Made by a program: the position numbers and the translations under genes
Source of the DNA: Pecten maximus
Lineage: Eukaryota
Assembly: GCF_902652985.1 (NCBI RefSeq)
Contig: NC_047020.1
Span: 9,610,001 to 9,674,000 of the forward strand
DNA length: 64,000 nt
Direction of reading: 5' to 3'
The notes under the pieces: generated by a model
Told to the model about the DNA's origin: nothing
Databases searched by the model: none
The model's input: the letters and a program-made list of their open reading frames with translations, nothing else
Part shown: positions 4,646-63,820 of the stretch, piece by piece
Layout: the number at the start of each line of letters is the position of its first letter
How positions within the stretch are numbered: position 1 is the first letter of the stretch

Positions 4646-4988
4646 GAATTGAATGCAATGAGATACGGCTTTAGCAGTACCTTGTATTGATAGTGAAATA
4701 TCGAAAACATTGCCTTGGCCTTGTAATGGGATTATACTATTGACGTGTCGTCATCTGTACATAGTCATTGTTATAAGGCTTTAACATAGAGAGAGGACGC
4801 GCATGTCTTAAGAACCATTGATACATTCCATGATTCGAAATTTCACTTTGAATGGTACATTATTGGAAGATACCGTCATTCAACATCTTAATATTTCACT
4901 TTGAATTACGTATGTCTATCAACTACTAGAGGTTGTCGTTGTTCGTTTTAATTTTGGAGAAGGGACAAAAAATAATACCATAGCCAGC

Positions 4989-12468: not shown

Positions 12469-14109
12469 ATGAGTTCTAATATCGGAACATCCATCGGCGG
12501 AGCATTTATCAACTGGTTTTCCGAGGATGTTATGCCAAAATTTGCTACAGCTGTCGACTTGACTGTACTGCTCATTAGCATAATCCTCAATGTTCTCCTG
12601 ATAGTAATGTTCAACAAGAAACATTTGTTCCTGGATCCTGCTAATAGACTTGTGTTTCAGCTGATTATTGTGGATATTCTCGCTTGGCTGTTTATTCTCA
12701 TCCCAGGGGCGGTGGTAGCCTTGAGGGGACAATGGGATCTACCAATGTCTGTGTGTTACGCCCAGGTGGTTATGGTGAACTCCATCTACCTTGTGATGTT
12801 CGGTCTCATCACTACGTTATTTATAGAGAGGACAGTTTTAGTTAGGAATCCAAAGTTACACGAGAAAGTGTTTGGAAAGGTTTCCCATGTTAATATAATT
12901 TCATTTCTAATCTGGGGTATCGATTTCGGCATCGCTTCCGTTCCGACGTCTGGATGGAGTCGCATTGACTACGACTTCTATCATGGAAGTTGTACTGTCT
13001 ATCACGAATCCAACGTATACTATGCCATTATACTGTTTATGTTCGGCATGGGATTATCCATCTTGTCCGGTGTTGTCTGCGTTCCTATAATTCTAAAATC
13101 ACGAAAGGAGAGAATCGTGTTTGAAAATGCAGAAGCCGCTAAGATTGAGGCAGAACTTCGTCGTAAGAAGCGGATGGAGACAATCGCAGAAGAGAAAAAA
13201 GAAGCAGAAAAAAATAAAGACGACAAGGATTTAGAAAAGAAATCTCTTACTCCTCATGCCAAACAAGGATGGACAGACACTAAACAACCAGATCAACATA
13301 AAGATAATAAAACAAGGAACAGGAAAGGGAAAAAGAGAGCACGGCGTGCTAGAACGCCGAAACGGCGAGACAAGCGTCTACTAGAGGATGATTACGATGA
13401 CCCCGACTTCCACCTTACGGTCACATATTTGATAATGTGGGTACTTATATTGATATTGTGGCTACCTTACTTTATAGTGGTATTCCGACACGCGATCAGC
13501 AACGATCTAGAGTTCTGGAGAGGATACTACTCTATTACCATCATAATTGCCCTCTTCAGTTTTTGTATCAAACCGATCATATATCTGTCTCATAATAGAC
13601 ATATGCAAGAGAAAACAAAGAATACTATCCCAGACAATGTCGTCAATAGAGCAACAGCCCTTCGGATGTCTTTCAGTGACGTTGTTGACAAACTCGATAA
13701 AATAGTGTTTAAATCTCCAAGGCCTCAGCCGTCTATCCAGACGACGGTGAAAGCCCATTCTATAGCTATGAATTGGATGAAGAAGTCGAATGTGAAAGGC
13801 GAAGAAGCTAAACCAGAAGTGAGGGGTACGGGAGATAATGGTAAAGATACAAACAAATTTGACAAATCACAAAACCCTGGGAACGAAATAGCTAAAAACG
13901 AAACGGACATTTCTAAGTCGATTTCTCCTAACCCGTCTGAGGAAGCGGGTATACTCCCTAAGGTGACTACCTCCACATCACCAGGTCCATTGGAAACTAG
14001 TACTGCTATAGGGGCCAGGGAATCAACCTTGATCGATATCGAGGGCACCGAACAAGTAACGGACAGGTGGCCATTGACTAGATCACCAGAACACATTTCA
14101 CGTATGTGA
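12469..14109 (+). CDS. Intronless class A orphan GPCR, 546 aa, paralog of the 4989-6473 gene
   Basis: Seven TM segments; QLIIVD (TM2), FIERT (TM3), LWLPY (TM6), CIKPIIYLSHNR (TM7/helix 8, nearly identical to the first GPCR); charged/basic ICL3 and long C-tail. Confidence 0.9.
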   Translation: MSSNIGTSIGGAFINWFSEDVMPKFATAVDLTVLLISIILNVLLIVMFNKKHLFLDPANRLVFQLIIVDILAWLFILIPGAVVALRGQWDLPMSVCYAQVVMVNSIYLVMFGLITTLFIERTVLVRNPKLHEKVFGKVSHVNIISFLIWGIDFGIASVPTSGWSRIDYDFYHGSCTVYHESNVYYAIILFMFGMGLSILSGVVCVPIILKSRKERIVFENAEAAKIEAELRRKKRMETIAEEKKEAEKNKDDKDLEKKSLTPHAKQGWTDTKQPDQHKDNKTRNRKGKKRARRARTPKRRDKRLLEDDYDDPDFHLTVTYLIMWVLILILWLPYFIVVFRHAISNDLEFWRGYYSITIIIALFSFCIKPIIYLSHNRHMQEKTKNTIPDNVVNRATALRMSFSDVVDKLDKIVFKSPRPQPSIQTTVKAHSIAMNWMKKSNVKGEEAKPEVRGTGDNGKDTNKFDKSQNPGNEIAKNETDISKSISPNPSEEAGILPKVTTSTSPGPLETSTAIGARESTLIDIEGTEQVTDRWPLTRSPEHISRM

Positions 14110-26844: not shown

Positions 26845-29800
26845 CTATCCAAGGAAGTTAAAATATGCACTGTTTTCTTTTTGTGTGTGCATATCAATCG
26901 CTTTTACTTCAATCTCCGCACCACCAAACGTAAAAACAACATCCACTCCACGATTCAAACCCTTTGTGGTATCAGGCATTTCAACTATCAAATCCCCGAT
27001 ACTTGTTACCCCCTCTTCAAACACATATATCGGGTCAGGATCTTTCGTGGTGTAAAGTTGAACTGGGAGCTGCTTTTGATCTTTTGCGACTACCACGTAA
27101 CGTCGTGGTTCGCAGCTTAGACCGACCGGAACTGTTTCACCAGCCCGCACGTGCACAGAAAAACCATTCGAGCAGCGTGGGAGTCCATCATCATGGTCTA
27201 AAAACATTAATAGCGGATCATGTAACCCTAGTATGAAGGCGACATTCGCTCCAACACCATAGGTGAATCGGCTGATCCTTTCGGTTACTGCTTCAAGCTC
27301 ATGTCCATTAATGACAGCGCCTATCAGTACAGCCAAACCAGCTTGGTTTGGGATCACGAGCCTCTTGTTAGAAAACCTTCTGGATATTTCATCATGTAGA
27401 ATTGGACATTCGGAAAATCCACCAACCAGGATGATCGCGTCGATGTCCTCTACTTCCGACTTTTTCAACAGGTCCGTGACATGGTCTATGATTTTTCGGA
27501 CGGATGGCTCAAATAATTTTCTGGCAATCTCAGACTTCATACGTAGCTTATCGTTTTTCCATGTCAGATTATTGGCGTAGTCTTTATCGTGTGCAACATG
27601 GTCTTCTACAGATTTTCCCTTATTGCTCTCCTCAAAGATGTCAAGTAAACTACAGGGAAGGGTGAAAGTTATTTTAGAGTCAGACGCAGAATGAATACAT
27701 CTCTTTTTCGTCTCGAAACTCCGTTGAAGTTCCAAAAGGTCTGAAACATGTTGCCGTTTGAATTTGTCAAAAACATCCTGTCCCAAAATGTTGGCCAGCA
27801 GATTTTCGAATTCTGTGTCAACCATAGTTCCACCCCAATCACCGCCATTAGCCATATGAACCTCTTTTAATTGCAGTCCTTCTTCGACCTTGTGAACTGT
27901 AATGTCGACGGTTCCTCCTGAAAACATATTGTACAGGTTTCTAGTTTCAATCCAAAGATACCACCTGGGAGTAATACATTCGGTGTTTACTCATATTACG
28001 ATTATTACATAACTTAAGATAATGCACAATCGTCAAGATCATTTATCCCCAAATAAAAAATGATATCTCGTACAAATATAATTATTGTCCTATCTCCTGC
28101 ATATATGGTGCATAAGAAGCATCTTTTGAAATGCTGTTTGAATAGTGATATAGCAAATCAGAACAGAACTATTTTAAGGTTCATATAAATGGCAATTTCA
28201 GTGATGTTTTACGAGCATAGAAATCAGTTTTCTGGTGAAACAGAACAGAAGTAACTTGACCAATTGTTAATATGTATCATAACTAACCATGGGGCTTGCT
28301 GATGACTTAAAAAAAATAAAAAAATAAAAAAAACAACATAAACATTGTTTCTCTTTGACCTTGAAATGCAAAGGACCGCTGTAAATTATATTGTACAAAC
28401 ATGGCATATACGGAGGCATTTCAATTATTAAGAAAAGCTCATATTTGATACTATTGTAATGTTTTCGAGACAAATATTTAAACAGTGAATTTTGGAGGTT
28501 TTTTTCAGAAATCTGCATATTTTACCTAAAAATCGATCAGTGGTTGAACCATGTTTCCTAAAGACGGGCTTTGTGCTATGTTGAGATTTCCATGTCTAAT
28601 AAGAGCGGTCTTTGTGATTGAAATGTCTCCCTATATGTCATAATTGTTTGCTATTGGTCAAAGCTGCCATTTGCATTTCAAGGTCGAAAAAGAATGAATG
28701 TTTATGCTTTTATAAAGTCAAATCTTGTCAAACAAACACTCGCATTACCTACTATAGGCTCGTGTGAGCATAAAGGTATGGTTATCATGGCAATACATTG
28801 CATGTCTTAACTACATAAGCTTTCTCCAATTTTAGCTGAAACCATTTGTGTACGTATTGTTGTTTGGTTATCAGGGGATAGGGTATCAGACGAATTATCA
28901 TAGCGTACCTCCCATATCCAGTACCATGTATTTGGCCCCTGGTTTGAAGATTGACACGTTGCCTTCCTGTCCGACAGCCAGATCGCTGACTGGGAGGTAT
29001 TTGCAGTACAGTGCGGCGGCCTCAGCCTCCAGTGCCATCACAAGTTGTGCACCAGGTATTCCTGCCTGTAACAAGACACAGCTGTTTGCATCGATGTTAA
29101 CCAAGATTTAACTTAGACAAAACAACACGGACAAATACTATTAGACAGAAAAATACAAAAAACATCATGAAAAAGTAAGCTTTAGTGCGACCGACTCCGA
29201 TTGTTTTTATATCAATCTTTAACGTTCTTTATTAATCTACATAAATTGAGATCACAAGTTCACACGCAATCGTTACAGCTACTCTTTTAAAATGAAAGTA
29301 ACTGTTATAAGAAATGAGCAAAATGAATGCATTAATTTGAGTTAATGTAAGCAACATAAGAGAAATCAACCTAAAGATTCGGAATTAGCGCATTTCGTGT
29401 TTGATTTGTTGAAATATCATTTCAATACCATTATGACAACATACTGGTAATTACTGTGTAATCAGTAAATATAAAAATGTCATCTTTAGGATGTTGTTTA
29501 TCAGGGACACGCTAATATATAAGATCCTGTGACGGAATATGTGTCACTATAAAATGGTAGATACACAACACACAACGTAGGCACCTTTTCAGCAGACTCC
29601 CTCATGAACTGCTTGGCCTTATCGCTCCAGATAGCTGGCATCGTCAGTACCCAACGGATATCCGACATCAAGACCTGTGTACCTCTCTCTTGACATTTTG
29701 CCAATAAATGTTCTTTCAGAAATTGGATAGAGCTAGAAAACACCTTCATCGCCAGCATCTCTCTTCCATTCTGATCTCTTATCTTCATAGTTCGGGAAAT

Positions 29801-39885: not shown

Positions 39886-42800
39886 TTACTTGCGTAAAAA
39901 GTTAAAATAGCTTGTTTGTTCTTCCCGGGTATGGATATCATAAGCAGTGACCTCAAGTTCTGCTCCCCCAAACGTAAACTCAACATCTACACCACGATTT
40001 AAGCCTCTCTCTGTATTCTGCATTTCCACGATGACCTCGCCTATGTTTTCACAGCCGTCTTCATCAATGTATGTGGGCTCCGGATTCGTCGACGTATAGA
40101 TCAGGATAGGAAGAAGTGTTTGGTGTTCCTCCATTACCCAGTATCGCTCAGACCGCCCTGTTAGCCCCACTGGTACGGACTCTCCAAACCTCACGTGTAC
40201 ACTGAAGCAACCAGTGCACAGAGTCTTTCCTCCGTCTTCATCGATGAATTTTCGGTTTTCGTCGTGTGTTCCCTGATCAAATGGCATATTACTTCCTACC
40301 CCATACGTCAGGCGACTGATGCGTTCAGTGACTGCCTCTAGCTCATGGCCATTTATGACAGCTCCTTTGAGGACGGCCAACCCTGCCTCTTGTGGAATTA
40401 TAAGACGTTTCGTTGGGAATGCTTTCGTTATTTCTTCCTGAAGTAATGGACATTCGGAGTAACCACCGACCAGGAGTATGGCTTGAATGTTTTCAATTTC
40501 AGGTTTGTGTAAAAGTTCGGTAACGTGATCAACGATTCTTTTCACAGATTTCGAAAATAAATCTTTAGCAAGATTTGAATTTAATCGCATCTTATCCAAT
40601 TTCCACGTCACATTTTTATCAAATTTTCTGCTAGATTTGATTTTAACAGAGAGATCCTCTTTGGGATTGATCTCGTTGAAGGTATCCAGCAGACTCATAG
40701 GAAGTGTGAATGTTATCCTAGCATCTTTGGTAGAACTGATACTTCGCTTCTTTGCCTCGAACCCCCGTTGTAGTTCTAAGAAATCGGCCTGGTTGTCTTC
40801 TTTGAACGTACGAAGAACATTCTCACCTAAAATGTCTGAGATAAGATTTATGAATTCCTTGTCAACCATTGTTCCACCCCATTCTCCCCCATTAGCCATG
40901 TATATCTCCTTCAGCCTCAGGTCGTCCTGTACCTCATGTACAGTCACATCTACTGTCCCACCTAGAAAGGATCAAATTATTAACGGGTTATCTCTTGGAT
41001 AACATTTCTGAAATATAATCTCCAATATCTTTCAACAATCTATGACATGATATAAGTTGTAAGTAAATAGATTCAATGTAGTGTTGTCACGTATAAGAAT
41101 TTTAAAGAATTATATACCATCATGTTATCTTATGTGTAAAATTCATTTGCATGTGTATATATATACACGCATAGTTATATATGCGTTTTATATTCCTATC
41201 TGGCATTTGTTAATAATATTCATGTTCATTATGAACTGTATTCTCGGTATTGCATCTTGGATGAATAAGATATCAACTCAAAGTGTCCACGGTAAAATAT
41301 TGTATGAAAAATAATAATTCAATACAATGCTGCCAATGACGCTATTGCAGTTTCAGGCAAATGCTAATGAGTATGATTTCATCATGCTTTTTCTATATAC
41401 ACTCTGTTGTATCTTACACTGTATTAAAGTGAAGTATCTTGATAGAGAATAACTTAATAAATCAGAGCGAACCTCCAACGTCGAGTACCAAGTACTTTGC
41501 TCCAGGCCTGAACACAGAAACGTTCCCTGCTTTACCCACGGCCATTTCGCTAAGAGGTAGGTATTTGCAGAAGAGGGCTGCGGCCTCGGCCTCCAAAGAT
41601 AGGACTAACTGGGCACTTGGAATTCCGGCCTGTGTGACAGAGATGCGTCTTCACTTTATTTTCTATTTCATAGGAATGAATGAAATGTGTTTGAAACAGT
41701 TGATATGGAATTTGATTTTAGGTATTCACTTTGTACAAGCAATTCATTTGAATGTCTTCCTCAGTACAGGTTAGGCAATCAGAGGAAAGAGAGGGCATAT
41801 TAGAGAATAAAACAATTTATTTGCACTACGTTAACTAGTTTCTACTAAAGATTGAAATTGTCAGTCGTAGGTATTTTGTGACCAGTGTTAATAGTTACGA
41901 ATCATTTCCGCTAAATGTAGTATTCCTTTGGCGACCCGACATATAAGATTCCACTTTAATTGTTTTACAATGTATATATTGTTTACCTGTACTGTACATT
42001 CTCTCATAAATTGTTTCGCACGGTCGTTCCAAATGGCCGGCACAGTAAGTATCCAGCGGATGTCCGACATCTCAATGTCTGTTCCTTGTTTCTTGCAAGT
42101 GCTTAGTAAATGGTCTTTGAGGAACCGAATGGATGATGTGAACACTTTCATAGCTGTCATTTCTTTACCGTTGCTGGCTTTCAACTTCATTCCTCTGGAT
42201 ATATTCTTTAACAAACAATGTCAAAATATCAATGATGATATTAAAATGTTTAATGAGAGTTTATTTCTGCAATAATTGCTAATTTCAAAATAATGGATCG
42301 TAAGGAGAATAAACGGCTTCATTGGTGTCGTATTTTCACAGAATCATCATGCTGTAACCATTTCAACGATGGCCTGATATCAAATTTCAGAACAAAATAT
42401 AGGTAATGGTTGGGAGGTACAATAATATAAACGATAACTAATTACAGAATACGAAAGTAATCAATGTAATGTACCTTTTCCTCATAAAGACTCATTTTGA
42501 AGCGACGGAAGAAAAACCACTGCTCGTGTTTGTTTTGCTCCATTAATTCTGCGTATTTGTCTTCAGCGTCGAATCCAAATGAATCTATTGTTTCACTCGC
42601 ATCGAACAGTATGGAACTGGACGTTTTCAAGGATAGGAGTCCTCCGGATTTAGCTGTCCAGGTCATGTCTGTCGCTTTCAACGGATTCAATTTATAATCA
42701 AATTTAGTAGAAAAGGCATATCCAGAAAATGTTGATCCGAAATCTAAAGCTGCTACCATTATGTACGGTGTATCCTTCAAGTTTCTTGTCTGTAAACGAG

Positions 42801-46588: not shown

Positions 46589-49369
46589 ATGCCGGGGTAT
46601 CCCATAGTAGCAGCGATCGACTTCGGTACAACCAATTCTGGGTATGCTTTCTCGACTATAGACGACTATAAAACATCGCCCTTGAAGATATCAGCTATTT
46701 CCTGGGTATCCGGATCCAACAGACTTCAGTCTCAAAAGACACCGACTTGTGTTTTATTTGACGAGAACAAGCGTTTTCACTCGTTTGGTTATGAAGCGGA
46801 GGATAAGTACTCCGACTTGGCATTAGACGATGAAGAAGAGGACTGGTACTTTTTTCGGAGGTTCAAGATGGAACTATACAACCGCAAAGTAAGGTTATAT
46901 ACCACACATATAGCAAGATGAACACTAGACTGAACAAGACTGAATTGTATCCTATATATCTACGTGAGGAGTTACCACCTTTAATGCACCACAGCTATAA
47001 TATTATAATTTCTGAATTGATATGCGGTATACCATGTAATGATACGCATACGATTGTGATTCCTGATTCTCTCTTTCAATTGTTTTAGTATTTTCCCACG
47101 TTTGCAGTTTACTTTAACTGTCTGCTTGCACAAGCTAGAACACTGTTGTGTCAAGTATGACAAACATATAATTCTAACTATTTATTGTTCAAAACAGGAG
47201 TATGATAGCAGTTTCGAACTGAAAACCCAAGACGGAAAGAAATCGATGAAAGCAATAGACGTGTTTGCTGCTTGTATCGAATACCTAAAAAATCACTTAC
47301 TGGCGACTGCAGATAAACAGGGTGTAAAATTCGTTGACGGGGACATCCAGTGGATCCTAACAGTGCCAGCTATATGGACAGAGCCGGGAAAGCAGTTCAT
47401 GAGGAAGGCAGCGGATCAGGTACACATATCAGCGCTCTAAAAGCAATATTCAATTCACAGTAATTTAACCAGGGCAATAGGTTTGATTTGATTGATACTG
47501 TAGAAATCAAGATACTCTCTCTGTATTCTGAAGCGGTTGTTAATTCTATTATGCATTTGATTAATTCTTTATATATAGTTTCAGGCTTGGTCAGGGCACG
47601 AGTCATAAAGTTGTCTTCCTTTGTCAGTTGTCTTGCTATGTTATAAAGATATTCATATCACTTGATAGGACGACTATCACTATGGTGATGTCAGGATATT
47701 GGGCCGACTATCAACGCGCTATTGAAACATTCTTGATTTAGCACACACATATATGTGTGTATGCGTGTTCATGTGCGTGAGAAGGTGAGTGTGTGTGAGT
47801 GTGTATGTGTGTTTGTGTTCATTGGGTAGTCTACTGTACTGCTACATCATTCTGGTGCCTTATATAATATTACTTTATCTTCATTTTGCATGGTAGGCTG
47901 GAGTGCCTTCCAAACACCTCAAGCTTGTGCTAGAACCGGAAGCTGCGGCTATTTATTGCACCAACTTGCCGATGGACAAGATAACTGTAGAAGGTTCGGG
48001 AGAAAAAATGTCAGTGTTTCAGAAAGGAACGAAATACATGATTCTCGATTGTGGGGGTGAGTAAGTAACAGATCATTTATATGTGGTTATAAGATAGATT
48101 AGATGTAATACCTTCAGAATAAAGGCCTAATATTTAACCCATTATATCGATTTTCTATTATCCGACCATTGTTATTGTATTGAAGAGTGATACTTCAAAT
48201 ATATCTTAAACAATATATTGGCACAAAACTCAATATACAGTTGAATTCGAAGCAGTATGGCTAAATGACGTTTGAAGTTGATGTTTATGTTGTATGTTTA
48301 AGGAGGAACAATTGACCTCACAATTCATGAGGTACAGGATGGAGGTGCCCTGAAGGAACTTCACAGGGCAAATGGTGGCGACTGGGGAGGAACAAGTGTA
48401 GACAAAGAATTCGAGCAACTTTTACAGGATCTCGTTGGCAAGGATGTGTTTCAAACTTTTCAAAAAGAAAGCATAGCAGATGTTCTAAATCTGTATAGGA
48501 GCTTCGAATTGAAGAAAAGAAGCATCCAAGAGGAAAATGACGACATGGTCACCATCACCATCCCTCCAATCCTACAGCAATTATGTAAGAAACAGAACAA
48601 AGGTGGGGATCCAATTGCTGCTATCGCGTCGAGCGGAAAGTACGCAAATGTTACATTGAAAAGAGACAAACTTCAAATTCCAAACAAGCTTGCGAAAACT
48701 CTGTTTACAAAATCCAGAGATAAGATTGTCTCCCACGTGAAACAAATTTTTGCCGAGCCAAAGGTGAGAGGGGCAACTATTGTCTTGATGGTTGGGGGCT
48801 ACTCCGAATGTGAACTTTTACAGCGTGCTATACAATCTAACTTCAGTGACAAGAAAATTATTGTGCCGTTCGAAGCTGGCCTATCAATTTTGAAAGGAGC
48901 AGTAATTTATGGGCATGCGCCAAATATCATTACATCACGCGTTTGTAGATTTACGTATGGTGTCGCTTGTAACAGGAAATTCAAAGAGGGGAAGGACAAG
49001 GCGGAATACAGGGTGAAAGGAGCGAAGGGAGACAGTAGATGCCTTAACGGATTTAAGATATTTTCCCCTAAAGACCAGTCAGTAGACCTTGGGACGGCCG
49101 TTCAGAAGTACACCTTCCATGTCAGCGGTGCAAAGGAAACTGGAATCGACCTTCCAGTCTACGCCTCAGAAGACATCAACCCCGACTACGTTACAGACGA
49201 ATCGTGCCAGAGGCTGGGAATTCTAAAAATAGAGATGCCGGACACGTCCCGTGGGTTAGATAGGTCGGTGGAAGTGGAAATGATTTTTGGTGGAACAGAG
49301 ATCGAAGTTAAAGCAATTGATACAAAAACAAAACAGGAAACACTGGCATCTTTCAGTTTTGTTGGATAG
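46589..49369 (+). CDS. HSPA12: HSPA12-like copy 4, 582 aa, intact and more divergent
   Basis: Exons 46589-46888 (MPGYPIVAAIDFGTTNSGY), 47198-47419 (WILTVPAIW), 47897-48056 (LEPEAAA...LDCG), 48303-49369 (GGTIDLTIH...FGGTEIEV). Boundaries are GT-AG and the total of 1749 nt is in frame. Confidence 0.93.
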
Positions 49370-49501: not shown

Positions 49502-49718
49502 TTTGTTTGGTTTGTTTTGTTTAACGTCCTATTAACAGCCAGGGTCATTTAAGGACGTGCCGGGTTTTGGAGGTGGAGGAAAGCCGGAGTACCCCAAGGA
49601 AAACCACCGGCCTATAGTCAGTACCTGGCAACTGCCCTCACGTAGGTTTCGAACCGGCAACCCATAAGTGGAGGGCTAGTGGCAAAGTATCGGGACACCT
49701 TAACCACTTGGCCACCGC
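49502..49718 (-). mobile_element. tRNA-derived SINE (V-domain-like), antisense, just downstream of the HSPA12 copy 4 stop codon
   Basis: Reverse complement matches 58182-58400; box A/B-like head, A-rich (aaac) tail, AATAC on both flanks. Confidence 0.9.
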
Positions 49719-50428: not shown

Positions 50429-50669
50429 TGTTATAGTCAGAAATTATGTTAATAATTATTTCTGGTGTACCCCTATATTTTTTGATTATGTGCAGCATTA
50501 AGCGTCTAAAGGGAGACAACTCGAATTTATTCACGGTACAATTATCGATCGGTTTTTGGTGATCACGTGACTTGCTCCTGACGCCATTAAAACATCTCGA
50601 AGAGTACATCTTGTGTCTCCTGTTTTTCAGGTCCTGGTATCTCCCCTCCCCTCCATACCTGGTGTAACA
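50429..50669 (+). repeat. Left LTR (5' LTR by PBS position)
   Basis: TG...CA ends; followed after 3 nt by TGGGGGCTTGTCCGGGAT. Confidence 0.95.
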
Positions 50670-50672
50670 TTT

Positions 50673-50690
50673 TGGGGGCTTGTCCGGGAT
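50673..50690 (+). promoter_or_regulatory. Primer-binding site, tRNA-Pro type (one mismatch)
   Basis: TGGGGGCTTGTCCGGGAT versus the canonical tRNA-Pro PBS TGGGGGCTCGTCCGGGAT. Confidence 0.85.
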
Positions 50691-53600
50691 TAAGTTGGGA
50701 GACTCCCTGTTTTAAAAGAGTTTCCTCATCTGAAGAATCCTCAGAAGTTAGATCTTTAGGTCTGGATTTCCTCTGCTTCTTGAGACGAGCACTGTGTGGT
50801 CTGTGTTCCTGGCGAATACCCTCAAGTGGTAGACTATTACACTGTAATAGAAGATTGCGGTGCAGGCGGCGAATGCGGCCTTTTCCATCCTCGCGACACA
50901 CATCATATACACTCGAATCATTAACACGTTTCCTAACAACATGAATGTGATCCTCCCAGAAGGATCGCAGCTTACCAGGTCCACCACGTTCACCTAAATT
51001 CTTCACCAAAACTCGATCTCCTGGTTCTAATGAAGCGCTGGTGTTTCTCGAATCGTGGTTCATTTTCCCTCTAGCAGCTGATCGATGTGCGTTCTTGGTC
51101 GCAATGCTGTATGCTTCCTTCATACGATCTTTCCACTTACTGGCATAACCAGAGTATGATTCTTTACTCTCACCTTCAGGGTGTGCATGTTGGAACAGTA
51201 GATCAACTGGCAACCGAGGGTGCCTACCGAACAACAAGTAGAATGGTGAAAAGTTCGTAGCGTCTGATCTTGTACAATTGTATGCGTGCACGACCCCATT
51301 CAAATGCTGTTTCCAGTCCGCTTTACCTTCTTTAGTCAGCGTCCTCAACATCCCGAGTAAGGTCCTATTAAAACGCTCCACCTGTCCGTTTCCTTGTGGG
51401 TGGTAAGGTGTGGTGCGCGAGTGACCCACTCCCGACAGCTTCTCGAGATTTTTGAACAGTCTGTTTTCAAATTCGCGCCCCTGGTCATGATGTAAACGAC
51501 AGAGATATCCAAACCGCGGAAAGAAGTCATTGAATAACTTTTCAGCGGCTGTTTTACTACTCTTATTAGTCGTTGCATAGGCCTGCGCGAATCTTGTATA
51601 GTGGTCCATTACCACAAGGATATATTCGTATCCTCCTTTACAACGTTCAAGATGAAGGAAGTCAATAGATACCAATTCAAAGGGAAATGAAGTCTCTATC
51701 GGTGTCAACGGAGCATCACGGCGTTGGTGTGGCCGCTTGTCTTTCATGCACAAACAAGATGCTCTCACAAACTGGTCGACATCAGCCCCCATGTGTGGCC
51801 AATAAAATCTGGCCCTTGCCAAGTCTAGTACCCGGTCAGCACCTAAATGTCCCATTTTAACATGTAACTCTTCCAACACTCTTGACCGGAATCTGTGAGG
51901 CAAAACTAACTGAATTCGTTGGCCATCGGTGCCTGCTGAGCGTCTTTTCAGGAGGTTGTTCTCGTCCACATATAACTTAGGCCATTCCCTCAAAAGTGCC
52001 TTAGTGTCACGCCTCAATTGACGAATTGTGTTCTGTGTGGGCTTTTTCTCCTCCTTCAGAAAACTAAACACAGGTCCAATGTCAGCGTCCTCCCTCTGAG
52101 CGGATTGGAGTTGATCAAGGGAAAATGGAATAATTGCTGAGCTTCCAAGTTTGCCGTTCTCAATGTCTAATGATTTCTCACTAAGGGAGGCAACCCAAAC
52201 ATTTTCTCCCTCTGACCGTGCTGTTGCTGAACATAGAGTGGTTTTCAAAGAATCTGGATCCACGACCTCAGTACAATACGACATTACACGAGAAATATCC
52301 AATGACATGCGGCTAAAACCATCAGCTGCCTGATTCTGGTGTCCTGGTTTGCAATAGATTTTAAATCTAAAGTCGGCCAGTTCAGAAACCCATCTTAACC
52401 GTGTGGCGTCTAGTTTTCTCGATGTGAAAATATACTGTAACGGGTTGTTATCGGAGTATACCGAGAACTCGCGTGCATAGTATAGATAGTCTCTGAAACG
52501 CTCCGCGACCACCCACTTTAAGGCCAAAAACTCCAGCTTCCCTGAGTGGAGGTGGTGATTCTTTTCAGCTGGTGTCAATGTGCGTGAGGCATAGGCGACA
52601 GGAGAAAGACGATGTTTTGAATTCTCTTGATATAAGATCGCTCCCAACCCTTCCTGTGAGGCATCGACATGAACGATAAACGGTTTTTCAAAGTCTGGAT
52701 AAATCATGACTTGACCCTCGGGTTTAATCAAGAGATCAATGAGTTCACTCAATAGTTTATGATGTCTGGGTGTCCATGTTACCTTCACACTCGACGCAAG
52801 TTGTCCACCTTTACCAACCTTTTCCCGCTTAGTATGACTATGACCTTTTGGATTGTTTCCCTCAGCCTCGCCAGAGTTGTCTTGTAGTAGATCGTATAGA
52901 GGTTTTGCTTTGCGCAAGAAATCTGGTATATAGCGACGATAGTACCCTATAAACCCTAACACTTGCCTCACTTCACCAACAGTACCTGGGTTTTTCTCTT
53001 TTAGGCTACGCACCGCCTCAGTGTCAGCCGGATCCATCTTATACCCATTCGGGGTAACAAGGTGACCTAAATACCGTACTTCACGCTTAAACAACTCACA
53101 TTTGCGCGGTTTGAGCTTAATACCATTCTTCTTGAGTCTCTGTAGTACTGCACGTATGTGTTCTATATGTTCCTCAAACGATTTACTGTAGACCAAAATA
53201 TCGTCAAGGTAGGGTAGACAGCATTGGTCTCTCAACCCATCTAGGCACTCATTCATAAACCGCTGGAATGTCCCTGGTGCTCCAGCCAATCCAAATGGAA
53301 TACGGTTCCACTCATACAATCCCCAGGGGGTAATAAATGCTGTATAGGGTCTGCATTCTTCACGAATATATCCCTGATGATAAGCTTTACCCTGGTCTAA
53401 TAATGTAAACCACTGACTACCACCGAGACTGTCGAGTGCATCCTGAATCCTAGGAAGGGGGTGACGATCATCAATGGTCTTCAGATTTAAACGACGATAG
53501 TCGCAGCAGTCTCAAACTTTGATCTTTCTTCCTAACACAGACAACAGGACTCGAGTAGGATGACCTCGACTTTCTTATCCAACCCTTAGCTAATAAATCA

Positions 53601-54916
53601 TGCAAGTAGTCCTTGACCTCCTGGTATAAGGGTTTGGGAATAAATGTATATGACTTCTGTACAGGGATATTGTCAACAAGTTTTATGTCCATTTCTAATC
53701 CTGGTGCATTGCCAATATCATCATCGGATCTCGAGAAAGCCTCCTTCTCCTCATGTAGTAGTTGCCTCACCGCTTTTCTCTGTTCTTCAGAAAGTTCTGA
53801 ACTAGACAAATCTACTGGTTCCCACATATCATCTTCATGAGGTTTTGACTGATTGCTTAGCGACATGTCAGTAGTGTCCTCGACCCTGTCAGTAATGTCA
53901 ACTGGTAAGTGAACAACTGATGCCACGGTCTGTAAAAGACCAATCTCCGTATGCCTGGGAATCATTATGTTATTTTGTGTATGATTTGCGACCACAACCT
54001 TCACCGTACTTGTTTTACCAGTTTTAACCTTAACCAATGTCTCTGTTAATGATAGGCCATATGTTTCGTTCACAGTGGGTACAAAGAGTGCATTCAAGGG
54101 AAACTCCTGGTTATCACCTCTCACAACTGCTCTTACTGTTTTTGAACTGTTTCCTTGAACAACAATGTTACTCCTACCAGTTCTTGCCACTCCTACATCT
54201 TCATTGTGACCTCGGCGAATCAAGGTACACAGGGAGACTAGATCGTCAGCCTTTAAGTCTGGAAATGCCGCTTGTGGCAACTGCGTGTCGGTAGTTTTTA
54301 TCAACTGTTCAATCACATTATAACCCAGGATTGGGTGTTCCATTGAAGTGTCTGTGACAATAAAAGGCACTACTAGTGGCGTCTCTGATGTGTGCAGTAG
54401 AACCTCAACCTGGACCCATCCACGGAATGGTACTGTGGTGCCATTAGCAGAAAATATGGACAAGTCTGGTACCAGTTCACTGACTGGCTGAACAGGAATG
54501 CTCGGTAAGTTCTTGCGCAGCCATTTGTAGTTTAGAAGTGACACTTGGGCACCTGTGTCCCAAAGAACACCAGTTTTTACCTTGTTTAGATCTGCTTGAA
54601 CAATACACTTTGTCCCAACTATTTTGGTCATCTTAATCTTTAACTTAGGTGGTAGACTCAACACACTGCCTTTTAATTCATGAACGGTCACTTTCCTTGA
54701 CACTCCTGTCTCTAACTGTTGAACTTTCTGACATAACGCTTTGTGTGTAGGTCATGCTTTCGCACGACATGCTTGACAACAGTACATAGCTGAATTACAG
54801 CCTTTACATCGTAATGTTGGATTCGTCTTCCCACATTCTCCACAACAAATACCTGGCTGGGACGTTTGCTCCTTGGGTTCTTCTTGTCCCTCTAGAGGAA
54901 CCCTCATTCGTTTCCC
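50691..54916 (-). CDS. pol: Gypsy pol, disrupted: MYND-like finger - aspartic protease - RT - RNase H - integrase
   Basis: LWDTGAQVS (protease), YLDD (RT), VDAS...LEFLAL...SDNNPL (RNase H), H-H-C-C plus SIDF/HHDQG/VERFN (integrase). Lesions: TGA at 54752-54754, frameshift near 53505, and no native stop (the frame runs into the left LTR to 50587). Confidence 0.92.
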
Positions 54917-56109
54917 TGCTTTTTATCGACTTTTGCGCGACAACCCCGTCTGAAGTGCTCCAAACTACCGCAACGGAAGCAATGCTTACAATCAGTGTTC
55001 CCCGACTGTTGACAGGCGGTACAACCCCAGCGTTGTGGACGCGACTGTGGACGTGACTGTGAACTTGCCTGTAGAGCTTCGCGAAGGACAGCGACCTCGG
55101 CTTTGAGTTCCTTTAATTCAACGGAGAAAGTACCCTCCTTGGGCTCACGTTTTTGTTTACTCGAGCTCTGACTCACTTTGTTCACTGAACATGAATTGTT
55201 TTTCTTTCCCAATTTCGAATTTCTTTCCGTTTCTCTGACGGCAATGTCATTCATTTCCTTTAGAAGTATCTCGTCGCTTTTGGTCCTTTTTAAGATGCTC
55301 TCAAATTCTATCCGAACTGACTCACTTCTTAGGCCTGTGAGAACGGAACGTTCGAATAATGCCTGGACCAGGGCTGTATCATAACGGGGTGACGTAGGGT
55401 CACTGTCTTTTGATGCGAAGATGATGTTCTGTTTTAAATTTAGTGTTCTCATTAAGAATTCAGAGCAATCCTCTGAGGGCATCTGTGCTGCTCTATTGAG
55501 TTCGTTGTATAATTCTGTTGCTGATTTTTCCCGATAATGGGCTCTGAGTAGACTTCTTAATGTAGACAAAGAAAGTTCATCTCTACCTTCAAGATAGCTA
55601 CGTAAACCGGAATTAGCTGGTACCGCTTTCAGCACTGCGTCGACTATCTCATAGTCTGGGTAGCCTTTCTTTTCCCCCATCTGCATCTGTCTCACTAATC
55701 CGACATAGGGTATTCCATTTTTCGCATCTACTTGCCCGGTGATCTTAAATTCACGACGATTGAGAGTTATTGGACCTTTCTCCTTCTCTGTTCCTGCTGA
55801 CATGTTTCCAGGCTCAGGTTCGGTCTTTACCTTAACCTCTGGTTCAGTCTTTACCTTTGGAGATGCTGTTACATGGCCCCCTGCCTCAAGGGTTACATCA
55901 GTGACTATTTGGGCACTAAATCCCTTGTCATCGGCTGTCAATTTCTGTTTTTCGAACCATTTCTGTATAATACCGATAACGTTCACTCTATTCTCCTTGT
56001 TTTCCTCACTAATATCAATGCCATTGGTACTAACAACCTCCAGCAAGTCCTCCAGCGAGGCCTGGTATATCCTCCCTATTGTGAAAAGAAAATGCTCTTC
56101 AAACTCCAT
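54904..56109 (-). CDS. gag: Gypsy gag, 401 aa, with C-terminal CCHC zinc knuckle
   Basis: The ORF starts 1 nt after a PBS; CFRCGSLEHFRRGC knuckle; ends at a G GGA AAC slippery site overlapping pol. Confidence 0.9.
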   Translation of the reverse strand: MEFEEHFLFTIGRIYQASLEDLLEVVSTNGIDISEENKENRVNVIGIIQKWFEKQKLTADDKGFSAQIVTDVTLEAGGHVTASPKVKTEPEVKVKTEPEPGNMSAGTEKEKGPITLNRREFKITGQVDAKNGIPYVGLVRQMQMGEKKGYPDYEIVDAVLKAVPANSGLRSYLEGRDELSLSTLRSLLRAHYREKSATELYNELNRAAQMPSEDCSEFLMRTLNLKQNIIFASKDSDPTSPRYDTALVQALFERSVLTGLRSESVRIEFESILKRTKSDEILLKEMNDIAVRETERNSKLGKKNNSCSVNKVSQSSSKQKREPKEGTFSVELKELKAEVAVLREALQASSQSRPQSRPQRWGCTACQQSGNTDCKHCFRCGSLEHFRRGCRAKVDKKQGNE

Positions 56110-56110
56110 G

Positions 56111-56173
56111 ATCCCGGACGAGCCCCCAAAATGTTACACCAGGTATGGAGGGGAGGGGAGATACCAGGACCTG
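56111..56173 (-). repeat. Inverted copy of LTR 3' end (42 bp) plus a perfect tRNA-Pro PBS
   Basis: Reverse complement of 50628-50690 with one mismatch; lies immediately upstream of the gag ATG. Confidence 0.92.
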
Positions 56174-56304
56174 TTTTTGGTGATCACGTGACTTGCTCCT
56201 GACGCCATTAAAACATCTCGAAGAGTACATCTTGTGTCTCCTGTTTTTCAGGTAAAGTATATTTTGGGTAAATGTCGGGATGACATTACTTTTTGGGGGG
56301 AGAG

Positions 56305-56545
56305 TGTTATAGTCAGAAATTATGTTAATAATTATTTCTGGTGTACCCCTATATTTTTTTATTATGTGCAGCATTAAGCGTCTAAAGGGAGACAACTCGA
56401 ATTTATTCACGGTACAATTATCGATCGGTTTTTGGTGATCACGTGACTTGCTCCTGACGCCATTAAAACATCTCGAAGAGTACATCTTGTGTTTCCTGTT
56501 TTTCAGGTCCTGGTATCTCCCCTCCCCTCCATACCTGGTGTAACA
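56305..56545 (+). repeat. Right LTR (3' LTR by PPT position)
   Basis: Preceded by the polypurine tract ggggggagag (56295-56304); near-identical to the left LTR. Confidence 0.95.
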
Positions 56546-57364
56546 CATACACGACTGGCCTCGTAACAAATTATCCACAAAGCTTTCTACAAATAACCAA
56601 CGTAGTGTATATTTACTTCAACCACAAATTAGTTTTGTCAAGTAGGGTTACCTGTTCATTTTCTTTATGTATGTCTATATTGATATCGTCTAACCGTTTC
56701 GGAGAGTCGAGACGTTCAAATGACAAAACACGACCATTGGTTAAATGTACAGAACTTGGACATTCACTTCGTCGTGAACTGGTTGGTAAAATTAAACATA
56801 TGTTCTAAGAATATACAGGTGTGAAATAAAGGAACGATATTGATCTGAAACATAGAATAACTTAAAGAATAACGATAATAAAAACATAACATACACATGG
56901 GGAGTTCCATAAATCAATGGAGATCCGCAATTACATGTATATTGTTTCGCGTTGTCTTTAGTAAGGGAACAACCAACCAATTGAAAAGTCCGATTGATTT
57001 ATTTTCTTCAAAAGTTCAGGTCATAATAATTAATAGGAAATAATTGCAGATTTTTGAGAATTTATACTTCGAAATTCACCTGGCCATTTTGAAAATGGAT
57101 AACCTGGGAAAAGTTTGAGCTGAAGGACCCCCTCTAAGTGTAGGAGTAACTGCTCCTGGTGTGTAGCTGATAGTAATAGTAAAAGCTGTAGTCGGATTTT
57201 TTGACATGCACTTACTTAATTATCTTTAAATTCCATATTTTCTATACCGACTTCCTTCTTGGGAAATTCCTCACCTCTAGTCTGATTATAAATGATATTG
57301 CTGTTATTTGTAAGTCGGTTTTCTTCCTACTCATAACTGATTTGTAAACCTGCAAGTTAAGATA

Positions 57365-58515
57365 TACATATATACACATGTGTTTGTCCCTCTGAGAGGA
57401 CTATACACACATATACATGTGTGTATCCCTCTAACAGTACTATACACACATAATACATGTGTTTGTCCCTCTGACAGGACTATACACATATATATATATA
57501 CATATATACATGTGTGTCCCTCTGACAGGACTATATACACATAATACATGTGTTTGTCCCTCTGACAGGACTATACACATATATACATGTGTTTGTCCCT
57601 CTGACACTATACACATATATCCATTTGTGTGTCACTCCGATAGGACTATACATATATATACATGTGTGTGTCCCTCAGACAGGACTATATACATGAGTGT
57701 GTCCCTCAGACAGGACTATATAAATGAGTACTCCCTCTGACAGGACTATATACATGTGTGTGTTCCTCTGACAGGACTACATACATGAGTGTGTCCCTCA
57801 GACAGGACTATATACATGAGTGTGTCCCTCTGACAGGACTATATACATGTGTGTGTTCCTCTGACAGGACTATATACATGTGTGTGTCCCTCTGACAGGA
57901 CTATATACATGTGTGTGTCCCTCTGACAGGACTATATACATGTGTGTGTCCCTCTGACAGGACTATATACATGTGTGTGTCCCTCTGACAGGACTATATA
58001 CATGTGTGTGTCCCTCAGACAGGACTATATACCTGTGTGTGTCCCTCTGACAGGACTATATACATGTGTGTGTCCCTCTGACAGGACTATATACATGTGT
58101 GTGTCCCTCAGACAGGACTATATACCTGTGTGTGTCCCTCTGACAGGACTGTACACATATCTACATGTGTGTGTCCCTCAAGGGGCCGCGGTGGCGGAGT
58201 GGTTAAGGTGTCCCGACACTTTAACACTAGCCCTCCACCTCTGGGTTGCGAGTTCGAAACCTACGCGGGGCAGTTGCCAGGTACTGACCGTAGGCCGGTG
58301 GTTTTTCTCCGGGTACTCAGTTTTTCCTCCACCTTTGAAACCTGGCACGTCCTTAGATGACCCTGGCTGTTAATAGGACGTTAAACAAAAACAAACAAAA
58401 GTGTGTCCCTCTGACAGGACTATATACATGGGTGTGTACCTCTGACAGGACTATATACATGAGTAGTCCTCCTGACAGGACTATATGCATGGGTGTGTAC
58501 CTCTGACAAGAATAT
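57365..58515. repeat. Minisatellite, ~31-bp unit (tgtgtgtgtccctctgacaggactatataca), interrupted by a SINE
   Basis: Directly visible; the array resumes after 58400. Confidence 0.95.
58182..58400 (+). mobile_element. Full-length tRNA-derived SINE (V-domain-like)
   Basis: ggggccgcggtggcggagtggttaagg (box A), gagttcgaaacc (box B), ggtggtttttctccgggtactcagtttttcctcc (V-like core), aaac tail; gtgtgtccctc duplicated on both sides. Confidence 0.92.
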
Positions 58516-58619
58516 GACTATATGTATTAATTTCATACAAGTATTCCGAAACTATAGCTAGTACCAAAACGGACTGAATATGATATCGATATTGATCCAG
58601 CGCTGATTGAGATTGCTAT

Positions 58620-60286: not shown

Positions 60287-63200
60287 AAACATATTTTATT
60301 GACATACAATAATGACAAAGGGATTAGTCAGCAATGTTAACCAACTTATAAACGACTTATCCCATAATAATAACAAAATAATAAACAATAACATAGTCAC
60401 ATGATGGGATTTACAAATATTCAGAANNNNNNNNNNNNNNNNNNNNNNNNNNNNNNNNNNNNNNNNNNNNNNNNNNNNNNNNNNNNNNNNNNNNNNNNNN
60501 NNNNNNNNNNNNNNNNNNNNNNNNNNNNNNNNNNNNNNNNNNNNNNNNNNNNNNNNNNTCCTGACCTTCTCAAGAGGTTTTGCACAACTTTGGCGATTTT
60601 TGTATTTTAAGTTGAGGAGATATTCGTGTCACCATTGCAAAGTATATTTACATTAACAGGACCGTACCAGGTTAAATCAGCAATAAAAGTTCCTCTTAAG
60701 TTGTTGTACAGGGGACGGTTAAGGAAAAAATGATGGGAATCTTCACAGGGATGTCCACATTGACAAGCAGGTGAATCAACGAGATTGGCTCTAAAAAGAT
60801 CATAGCTTAGTGCACTTGCTCGATTTCTTATTCTGTTGTGTAGAATATTTAGTTTTCGAGGACCATAACTGATAAAATGCTTGTCATATATACTGTTTAC
60901 TGTCATCGATTTTTTTAGATTAGATTTGAAGGAACTTAAAGTAGGCGAGTTTCTGATAGTGTTATGTAAGTCATTCCAAAGTTTTGAAGTAGAAGGAAAG
61001 AAAGAGTTTTTTGATAGTTGTAGACGAAAGTGTTGTGCCCTAAATAAATTTGCATTCCGTCAATTATAAGGAGCTGTGTTGTCAATATACATTGCTAGTA
61101 GGTCGATAAGAAAAGTAGGTACCAGATTATTGACTATAGAATAGAATAAGGAGAATTTCCGAGCATATCTTCTCTTCCAGATATAAGAACTCTGTTTTTG
61201 TGAATATGGGTAGCCCTGTGGCTGTTCTTGCGGTCTCTAGATTTATTTTTTCTAATAACAATGAGTTTGTTGTACCGCAGTTGTCACATACTTCACATGC
61301 ATATTCAAGTAATGGTCGTATATAGGTAAGGTACATTTTTTTTCTAATGTGTTCCTGTTTAAGATAAGTTTTAATTTTATATATTTAGTTACTTTATTGA
61401 CTATAGATTCTACATGTACGTTCAACTAACAATCATCAGAAGAGAATGACTCCTAGGTGTTTATGGTGGTTTGTTATTTTAATTGGGATATTGTCGAATG
61501 TAAAGGACGGAACAAAAGGAAGTTATCTAGTTGATATTACGAGGGCCTCGGTTTTATTAGGATTAAAGGACATAAGCCATTCATTGGACCAAATTTCAAG
61601 TTTTAATAAGTCGCGTTTAGCCTCCGTCTCAATAAGGTTGAGGTCATATGACGCGTAGGATAGAGATGTATCGTCAGCGAAAAGCCTAGATAGAGATGAA
61701 AGATTACAGGAAATATCATTTATGTATAGTAGAAAGAAAAGTGGACCAAGAACTGACCCTTAAGGGGACACCATCATTTATAGGCTTAAGAGAGGAAAGT
61801 GAATCATTGATAAATACAGCTTGTTTTCTTTTTGAAAGATAACTAGCCACCCAACGAAGAAGAGGTCCAGAGATACTATAATTGTCGAGTTTATGTAAGA
61901 GGCCTTTCTGCCACACGCGGTCAAATGCCTTAGAAAAATCACAAAAAAAAAAAATAAGATAGAATGTTCATAATTTTCTAAGGAAGAAATGATTGAATGA
62001 TATATTTCAATAAGTTGATGTGTTGTGGAGTGATTTGGTAGGAATCCAGACTGATACTTATAGATAAGGTCGTTTTCGATTAAAAAATTGTAAATATGCT
62101 TATATACTACACGCTCAAAAAGTTTACCTATACAACTTAGCAGCGACATAGGTCTGTAATTAGAGACAATGCTTGCATCATTGGCCTTAAATATAGGCAT
62201 TACATGAGCAATTTTCCAGCTCTCAGGAAATATACAAGATGACAAAGAATAATTGAATATAAAAGAAAGTGGTATAGAAATTTCACTTGAGAGTAATTTT
62301 AGCATTCTGTGACTGATACCGTCAGGACTTGACGCCTTTTTAACATCTAGATTTTTTATAATGTCTTCAACTTCACTGGAAACGCTATGTATTTCTGATA
62401 AAATAGAATCTGTCCTCTTTTCAAAAAAGGGTAATTCTTTATCTATGACATTTTCTGACAGAGTACACACAGAGCTAAAATAAGTATTCAACAGTTCACA
62501 TTTCCTATTGTTGTCATATATAATTTCATTCGTAGAACTATCAAGTAGAGGAGATATATCTGGGGTTTTTTTTTTTACCTCTGAGAAGGTTTCCCAGAAG
62601 TTTCCAATACACTTTTGGGTTGTTATTACTATTGTCTATAACTGTGTTAATGTTTTCATAAAATATCTCTTTAGCCCTCTTTATCATATTATTTACTTTA
62701 CTCCTCATATGCTTGTATTTATTCTTATTGGACTCTGAATTATTATTAAACATTATTTTTTTTAAGTCCGTCTCTTTTCCTTATATTACGTCTTACCATT
62801 CCATTCATCCATGGTTTATCACTGTCGCGTACTAATATTTCTTTTGATGGTATACATTTATCAATAGCATCATGGAATTTTTCAGTAAAGAAATTACACA
62901 TTTCATTAACATTTGAAAGATTGGTAAAAGTGTCAAACCAGGGAATACTGTTAATCATTCCTTTTAACTTATAAATATCGGTTTGATCATATTGTTTGAT
63001 TTTAACAGGACTATTTATAATTGCGAAAACGGCATCATGGTCACCTATACATGTAGTTCGCTCAATGTCAATAACATCGGAAAAAATTACATGTGTAGTA
63101 TCACTTACAATGATAGGGTCAAGAAGGGTTGAGAAGGTATCGGTTTGTCTAGTGGGTTCGGTAATGACATTGGTTAAATTATAATTGGACAAAATATCAC

Positions 63201-63820
63201 ATAGATCACCTCTGACGGGTTAAAGAAAACCAATATTTAAATCACCTGTAATTAATAAATTGGGCGTTTCTTCGAGTGCTGTTTCAATGGAATGTCGTAA
63301 ATGATGCCACAAACCAGCGCCATTATAAGAGGGTGGTCTGTATACGTTACAGATTAGATACAAAGTATTACGTAATTTGATTTGAGACCATATCATTTCA
63401 TCATGACTAAATTCGAGATCAATTCTCCGTTTAGCTACAAGTGTTTCAGAAAAGTATAGGGCAACACCTCCCCCAAACATGTTACGATCTTTGCGAAAGG
63501 GTTCCGAAAAACCATCGATTTGTATTGCAGAGTTGGTGATAGAGTTGTCAAGATGGGTCTCAGTTATACATGCTATATCAATATCGTCTATCAAAGAGCT
63601 CAAATATTGAACCTTGTTACGCAAACTTCGAATGTTTAGATGGAGCAAACAAAGGACACTGGAAACCGAACTTTCAGAATTGGGTCCCGGGTTTGGGTGG
63701 ATATCCTCAGCTATTAATAAAAATTATCAAGGTTGCGTTAAATGGATGCTGGATGTAGTGGGACAACTGCAGTAATAAAATATAGATCCTATGAAGACAG
63801 TTGAGATTGAAGATAACTCT
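60287..63820 (-). mobile_element. Decayed 5'-truncated APE-type non-LTR retrotransposon (CR1/L2-like ORF2: endonuclease + RT + C-terminal Cys motif)
   Basis: Endonuclease motifs HLNIRSL, ITETHL, NVYRPP, GDLNI (63220-63648); RT motifs SPDGI, WKIAHVMPIFK, NYRPMSLLS, QSGF (61778-62491); IRPLLEYACEV; CQCGHPCEDSHHFF; AATAAA near the 3' end; many frameshifts; contains an N gap. Confidence 0.92.
60427..60558. other. Assembly gap (132 N)
   Basis: Run of N. Confidence 1.

Follow-up and report, generated by a model that had tools for sequence, protein, structure and literature searches.

MBD and cytosine methyltransferases are said to have been captured by LTR retrotransposons, in work attributed to de Mendoza in 2019 and 2018. 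In retroviruses, the position between nucleocapsid and protease is taken by the transframe peptide p6*, which is made only by frameshifting and is unstructured. LTR retrotransposons rarely have extra domains that are fixed, and the earlier cases pointed to real interactions between host and element (PMC9289625). Chromoviruses and other Gypsy fusions with chromatin readers (Chromo, PHD) carry a binding module of host type as a fixed part of Pol throughout a lineage (10.1101/2021.11.30.470311 and PMC12440569). A Gypsy element of one orchid genus retains under selection a captured host domain, AlkB, as an extra ORF (PMC9289625). As for the MYND finger itself, it is known from host proteins such as ETO/CBFA2T1, DEAF-1, BS69/ZMYND11, SMYD1-3 and ZMYND10 (PMC3555993, PMC4742278), and in BS69, ETO and DEAF-1 the ligand is bound through three residues that do not hold metal, Tyr, Gln and Trp (PMC4742278).

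The retrotransposon described here lies in a 64,000-nucleotide stretch of Pecten maximus DNA (the window, i.e., the whole stretch that was analysed; host genome size 918 Mb), and its Pol begins with a MYND-type finger. This finger is similar to those of the host proteins in its C4-C2HC ligands, its predicted fold and, over the clade as a whole, its Tyr/Gln/Trp face, but it lies inside a retrotransposon polyprotein, is followed by a clade-specific helix and the protease, and has no SET, SAND or coiled-coil partner domain. As in the chromoviruses, a host-type module is fixed in Pol across a lineage; however, chromodomains, which recognise histone marks, lie at the end of the integrase, whereas the finger starts Pol, before the protease. 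Pfam scans of the Pol of the element and of nine relatives gave no chromodomain family, that is to say, the chromodomain at the integrase C-terminus by which chromoviruses are recognized is absent from the element. Like the orchid AlkB, the finger is in all likelihood a captured host domain that has been retained, but it is non-catalytic, lies inside pol and occurs in several animal phyla. It shares with p6* the position between nucleocapsid and protease and, as inferred here, the dependence on frameshifting, whereas it is predicted to be a folded two-zinc domain; no folded host-type module was found described at this transframe position.

Two further Gypsy groups need to be compared. The Gmr1 clade is defined by an integrase upstream of RT (PMC6238403), and in the element the integrase follows RNase H. 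Barthez, according to a published table, has a Pol of ~1,340-1,580 aa and LTRs of up to ~1.1 kb (PMC11117352, PMC4746887, PMC3670739), and the likeness to it is by description only (fish hosts, Pol and LTR sizes); the accessible text of the three papers makes no mention of MYND. The group neighbouring the finger clade, whose sister position is weakly supported (89/64), has a PNMA-type Gag, and PNMA genes are listed under Barthez. Two Gags of the finger clade gave no PNMA match (PF14893, E 1), against 8.7e-11 in the neighbouring group.

In the full-text literature, with most subscription journals, Repbase Reports and GyDB outside the coverage, no description of a MYND finger in a retrotransposon Pol was found. 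MYND is not mentioned in the main text, as available, of the chromatin-reader fusion preprint 10.1101/2021.11.30.470311 or of the mollusc, fish and vertebrate Gypsy surveys (PMC6238403, PMC11117352, PMC4746887, PMC3670739, PMC11011659, PMC12440569), nor in one supplement each of PMC6238403 and PMC11117352. Where MYND occurs in the accessible text of PMC3562529, PMC3532108 and PMC8226300, neighbouring or expanded host genes are meant. The finger in Pol is thus apparently undescribed, although the pairing of zf-MYND with Pol is visible in automatic Pfam annotation and may have been noticed without comment.

The element and its rearranged copy

The host element is a Ty3/Gypsy LTR retrotransposon (Metaviridae). 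Its domain order after gag is PR-RT-RH-IN, as in Ty3/Gypsy (Pfam scans of the element and its relatives), and the hallmarks of Metaviridae are present, i.e., TG...CA LTRs, a tRNA primer site, a polypurine tract and a target duplication. The features in the window are as follows:

56305..56545, plus strand: second outer LTR, 99.2% identical to the first
56295-56304: polypurine tract, before the second outer LTR
56173-56132, minus strand: last 42 nt of an LTR, preceding the primer site
56111..56128, minus strand: primer-binding site, matching the 3' end of host tRNA-Pro genes
54904..56109, minus strand: gag, an unbroken ORF, sharing 44% identity with the Gag portion of a frog relative (185 aa compared)
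54981-54940, minus strand: CCHC knuckle of Gag, with a further Cys/His cluster upstream
54910..54916, minus strand: slippery heptamer GGGAAAC, read in the frame of gag, presumed site of -1 frameshifting
54875..54903, minus strand: hairpin right after the heptamer, weak in the window family
54731..54844, minus strand: zf-MYND finger (C4-C2HC, Pfam), first domain of the pol frame, with a stop at 54754-54752
54704..54730, minus strand: predicted amphipathic helix (residues 50-71) running on from the finger, C-x2-I-x2-L in relatives
54293..54607, minus strand: retropepsin protease, catalytic Asp at 54559 (Pfam and structure model)
53927..54199, minus strand: predicted beta domain of dUTPase fold (model residues 242-332), in the interval between protease and RT
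50686..53511, minus strand: RT, RNase H and integrase (Pfam), out of the protease frame, integrase tail cut at ~50686
50673-50690: second primer-binding site, after the first outer LTR
50429..50669, plus strand: first outer LTR, 241-nt short form, in opposite orientation to gag-pol

Both outer LTRs are flanked by the target duplication CATA (4 bp), and 4-bp duplications were found in three copies. Since gag-pol lies on the minus strand and the outer LTRs on the plus strand, the interior is inverted; an aberrant cDNA, a subsequent inversion or an assembly artefact would each account for this. A 2-nt indel near 53508 puts RT, RNase H and integrase out of the protease frame. That is to say, the window copy is a dead, rearranged insertion, with a stop in the finger, an indel, a lost integrase tail and an inverted interior. 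The site is empty in one DNA run, so the insertion is polymorphic and recent. In an unbroken copy, pol and the 3' LTR are ~330 nt apart, which leaves no room for env. The domain between protease and RT has no Pfam match; its model resembles the dUTPase chains 3c3i and 3hhq at E 8e-4.

Several structural details accompany this copy. Within 50429-56545, the inverted interior keeps its own primer site and LTR end, and an extra LTR piece lies at 56173-56253. The full LTR of the family measures ~1.27 kb and has a 66-nt direct repeat near both ends (L061 307-1572, L062 and L063, reverse-strand numbering); the 241-nt LTR is the remnant after loss between the 66-nt repeats, and long and short forms are found at opposite ends of one copy. 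The same internal repeat layout (64-73 nt) is seen in three other families of the clade (L057 899-2076; L011; L058). In addition, the Cys/His cluster before the Gag knuckle (54940-55023, minus strand) reads C-x2-C-x7-C-x-H and is common to all four finger-bearing families of this genome and to fish relatives.

The finger and the gag-pol junction

An earlier note on this DNA had quoted a peptide at the start of pol as a MYND finger. The peptide is indeed encoded there, by the minus strand, and shares its frame with the protease ORF; it matches PF01753 in HMMER over positions 1-39 of 39 with 33.9 bits (E 3.2e-8, cut-off 22.7; X read at the stop codon); an unbroken copy scores 32.6 bits. From its first Cys at 54844 to the end of its last Cys at 54731 (minus strand), all eight C4-C2HC ligands, seven Cys and one His, are present. 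The stop codon said to stand in place of the conserved Trp is indeed there, at 54754-54752. This protease ORF ends at 53471, and with the stop in between, an ORF caller would miss the finger in this copy, as the note had remarked of the ORF track.

Intact family members do exist: the other three close copies (3/3, ~99% identical) carry no stop in the finger, and the contigs of three DNA runs, one of them possibly the source sample, are stop-free at this position. Programmed read-through or recoding of the stop is therefore ruled out. The stop may be genuine or may stem from the assembly, since rare variants are lost from contigs. Among the four close copies there is one synonymous difference within the finger, too few changes to inform on selection. 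In the window family, as in its closest relative, Arg replaces the Gln of the binding face, and relaxed selection in this family is possible. A possible RNA run has no coverage of the finger.

As for the structure, the model predicts a beta-beta-alpha cross-brace MYND fold with a pLDDT of 87. The best structural matches of the 61-aa model are SMYD3 and the AML1-ETO MYND (rmsd 1.8-1.9 over 46-47 residues, E 0.013), and Foldseek gave no match for it at E 0.001; ZMYND10 is middling (Z 5.8, rmsd 3.0, 52 aligned). For a 348-aa model, the matches listed are protease and dUTPase folds alone. The helix of the finger is predicted to extend for three more turns and to be followed by a low-confidence linker (residues 74-88) before the protease, and a modelled homodimer of finger plus helix scored 0.02.

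The overlap of gag and pol is a -1 relation, with GGGAAAC just upstream of the gag stop, and this heptamer is shared by 3/4 of the finger-bearing families of this genome. Over 35 nt, the z value of the hairpin is -1.4 in the window family and -3.8, -4.6 and -1.5 in the other three; over 80 nt, the region of the window family gives 0.37. At the protein level the trace of the slip site is weak (7/37 vs 188/2462 windows). The Gag knuckle is in frame in 0/199 finger-bearing proteins, compared with 12/20 finger-less proteins with a long upstream part, an association of in-frame gag-pol with absence of the finger that comes from two or three lineages only. Since no finger-bearing Pol has an in-frame Gag, frameshifting probably yields the finger in few copies, and it is very likely to be expressed in this way only.

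Distribution, conservation and origin

Three protein searches and 13 genomic frames gave 356 sequences, of which 199 have finger plus protease, 20 are finger-less with a long upstream part, 81 have an upstream part too short to judge and 56 lack a protease match. The supposition that a whole lineage carries the module between Gag and protease is borne out by these 199 sequences, which belong to one RT clade; mapped onto the RT phylogeny, the finger-bearing sequences fall in a single clade with a support of 100/100. An RT-only query, which is blind to the finger, gave 1,116 matches, and of the best 120 among them 43 show PF01753. The carriers with a species name are two corals (Oculina patagonica and Paramuricea clavata), a fish (Metynnis hypsauchen) and a frog (Hyperolius riggenbachi); most matches lack organism names, and carp proteins sit in clusters whose representatives bear the finger. 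Three further families of this genome have it, one with a stop of its own at another position, whereas 0/23 other Gypsy loci of the genome (protease in view in 19) carry it, in keeping with the view that the module is foreign to other Gypsy Pols. The sequence comparison thus confirms the finger as a trait of a lineage, not an oddity of one copy; it marks a whole clade over several animal phyla. It also explains database gene models in which zf-MYND is paired with RT and integrase and which could be mistaken for host genes.

Loss of the Cys/His residues in intact relatives would have spoken against the finger, and each of the eight ligands is kept in 95-100% of the 199 sequences, a figure that is partly circular, as these were picked by a finger profile. 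The column entropy is 2.24 in the finger and 2.15 in the protease, against 3.38 in the linker. In the helix, Ile is found in 80% and Leu in 74% of the 199; the Ile occurs in 24/34 element fingers vs 4/27 non-element fingers. These data bear on the idea that the finger is a neutral passenger, a stretch rich in Cys by chance, or a host fragment peculiar to the window copy. The broken state of this copy and the repeated loss of the finger would suit this idea; against it, the finger is conserved like the protease across proteins <50% identical, from corals to frogs, and the MYND-spaced pattern, found once in the window, occurs in none of 60 doublet-shuffled windows. For the clade, the neutral or chance reading is refuted by conservation, and overall it hardly deserves credence.

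The RT tree was built from 59 rows, namely 6 outgroups, 13 rows without the finger and 40 drawn from the 79 finger-bearing rows that include RT. All 53 ingroup rows form one clade at 100/100; a mixture-model tree of 43 rows agrees with it. The finger is found in every main branch of the clade but one. Its presence requires 7 changes on the tree, and a finger-only clade is rejected (p 6e-34). Five finger-less rows are separate nested losses, so that the tree points to at least five losses within the clade. The other eight finger-less rows form a group in which all named members are fish, and which may stand for a sixth loss or for a lineage that was always without the finger; its placement outside the finger-bearing clade has an AU p of 0.21. 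A decayed sister copy lost the finger by an in-frame deletion. From this deletion and the nested losses it follows that the finger is dispensable; with several sub-lineages having lost it, it appears helpful rather than essential, and the finger-less sister families are natural controls.

Some variants of the arrangement were also seen. The sub-lineage of P0026, P0034 and P0048 keeps the first half of the finger with the second half replaced, a degenerate intermediate; in the group P0054-P0079 and in several of P0204-P0331, an insert of 100-200 low-complexity residues parts the frameshift region from the finger; and P0273 has two fingers.

With regard to origin, the element fingers and 27 non-element fingers cluster apart (4 changes vs 20.3 when shuffled), and a single element clade is unrejected by the finger tree (p 0.51), whose 51 columns give little resolution. 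A single capture is quite likely on these alignments. The solved MYNDs tie as nearest (DEAF1 46.6, SMYD1 46.4, ETO 42.8 bits), in a set that is biased to chromatin and co-repressor proteins and with scores within 5 bits, while one host finger scores 57.5, inside the element-finger range of 51-63; no donor can therefore be named, and a chromatin or co-repressor origin is accordingly not established. A finger-only protein search gave no donor candidate, and an Atlas search gave generic MYND clusters (0.92-0.94) or leads only (0.84). In this genome, tandem clusters of host-like MYND genes lie on C14 at 19.36-19.41 Mb (L067, L070, L071, L074) and on C5 (L079-L082), their genes having one or two fingers and a C-terminal region without assigned identity.

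Proposed role and genomic surroundings

We consider it fairly probable, on the sequence comparisons above, that the MYND finger of the clade is an anciently captured adaptor for a host proline-rich motif. The finger would have been taken once from a host gene, long ago, and placed at the front of Pol; it would be made only when ribosomes shift from gag into pol; and it would then bind the proline-rich motif of a host protein and bring this protein to Gag-Pol or to the assembling particle. In the 199 sequences the residues of the binding face are kept (Tyr 96%, Gln 89%, Trp 81%; a sub-group of about 12 has neither Gln nor Trp), so the clade retains the binding face, not the scaffold alone. Peptide binding through this face is likely, and recruitment of a host factor would fit its conservation. 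Among 59 finger-bearing and 12 finger-less full-length proteins, none of five proline-motif patterns (PxLxP-like) in Pol tracks the finger, and the only columns that separate the two sets are those of the finger itself; the ligand is therefore probably not in Pol. That the finger is cut loose from the protease, at the flexible linker between them, is about as likely as not, and a cytoplasmic action during assembly, as opposed to one at integration, is put forward with a little less assurance. The ligand, once found, would point to a host protein on which these elements have relied over a very long span of time.

Alternatively, finger and helix might act within the polyprotein, with no host partner, by regulating the folding, dimerisation or timing of the protease or by binding the element's own Gag. 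The finger stands right before the protease (mostly 54-62 residues from the last Cys to the catalytic Asp), where retroviruses have their transframe peptide, the amphipathic helix is a peculiarity of element fingers, and six finger-less rows show a faint helix trace (2-3 bits or less) at the same spacing. However, the variable, low-confidence linker parts the finger from the protease, the proline motifs of Pol do not follow the finger, and many relatives work without it, so we regard this explanation as unlikely.

A nuclear role is given the same low credence: in the manner of a chromodomain, the finger could tether the integration complex to chromatin or co-repressors, or shield the insertion from silencing. 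Its best solved matches, DEAF1, SMYD1 and ETO, are chromatin or co-repressor proteins, and fusions of retrotransposons with chromatin readers are common (10.1101/2021.11.30.470311), but the bias and near-tie of the solved set weaken the first point. Moreover, finger and integrase lie at opposite ends of Pol with the protease between them, a distance that argues against chromodomain-like tethering. The flanks of seven insertions, a small sample, share common repeats only and no target sequence, and no integration targeting was seen in 10 flanks.

A decoy role would fit poorly with a module made only through frameshifting, since the low copy number argues against it. One form of it is that the finger mimics the MYNDs of Tudor proteins and competes for the piRNA machinery, or else serves as an entry ticket that docks in nuage. 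The Veneno MYND is needed for granule localisation (PMC6411831) and the Vreteno MYND touches the CS domain of BoYb (PMC12526068). Yet no Tudor-protein finger is among the solved matches, no host finger was recognised as such, and a frameshift-only product would be scarce for titration; this mimicry is accordingly considered improbable.

The adaptor reading has a bolder extension, in which an ancient, animal-wide clade plugs Gag-Pol via the finger into the silencing machinery of the host, be it co-repressor complexes or the scaffolds of piRNA granules; we think this doubtful. In this view the finger, which is found from corals to frogs, would be an imitation of a host adaptor encoded by the retrotransposon; that seems equally unlikely. 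A silencing factor as ligand, if true, would raise the interest of the finding.

Around the element, the window holds Hsp70-like host exons at 26845-27990 and 39886-40971 (both minus strand and matching Pfam HSP70), and a frame at 48302-49369 (plus strand) that is Hsp70-related by eye without a Pfam match, the element being inserted ~1 kb after it. Two long single-exon frames of rhodopsin-type GPCRs lie at 4905-6473 and 12436-14109 (plus strand), and a LINE remnant with endonuclease and RT pieces at 61778-63723 (minus strand). On either side of the element lies a copy of a common repeat, the two being inverted to each other (49506-49718 and 58188-58399) and adjoined by a 31-nt satellite array (57363-58520); this repeat also adjoins the C12 insertion. 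On C3, at 18.92-18.97 Mb (L097-L106), about 29 matches to the 3' end of tRNA-Pro lie within 57 kb, two of which proved to be tRNA-Pro genes.
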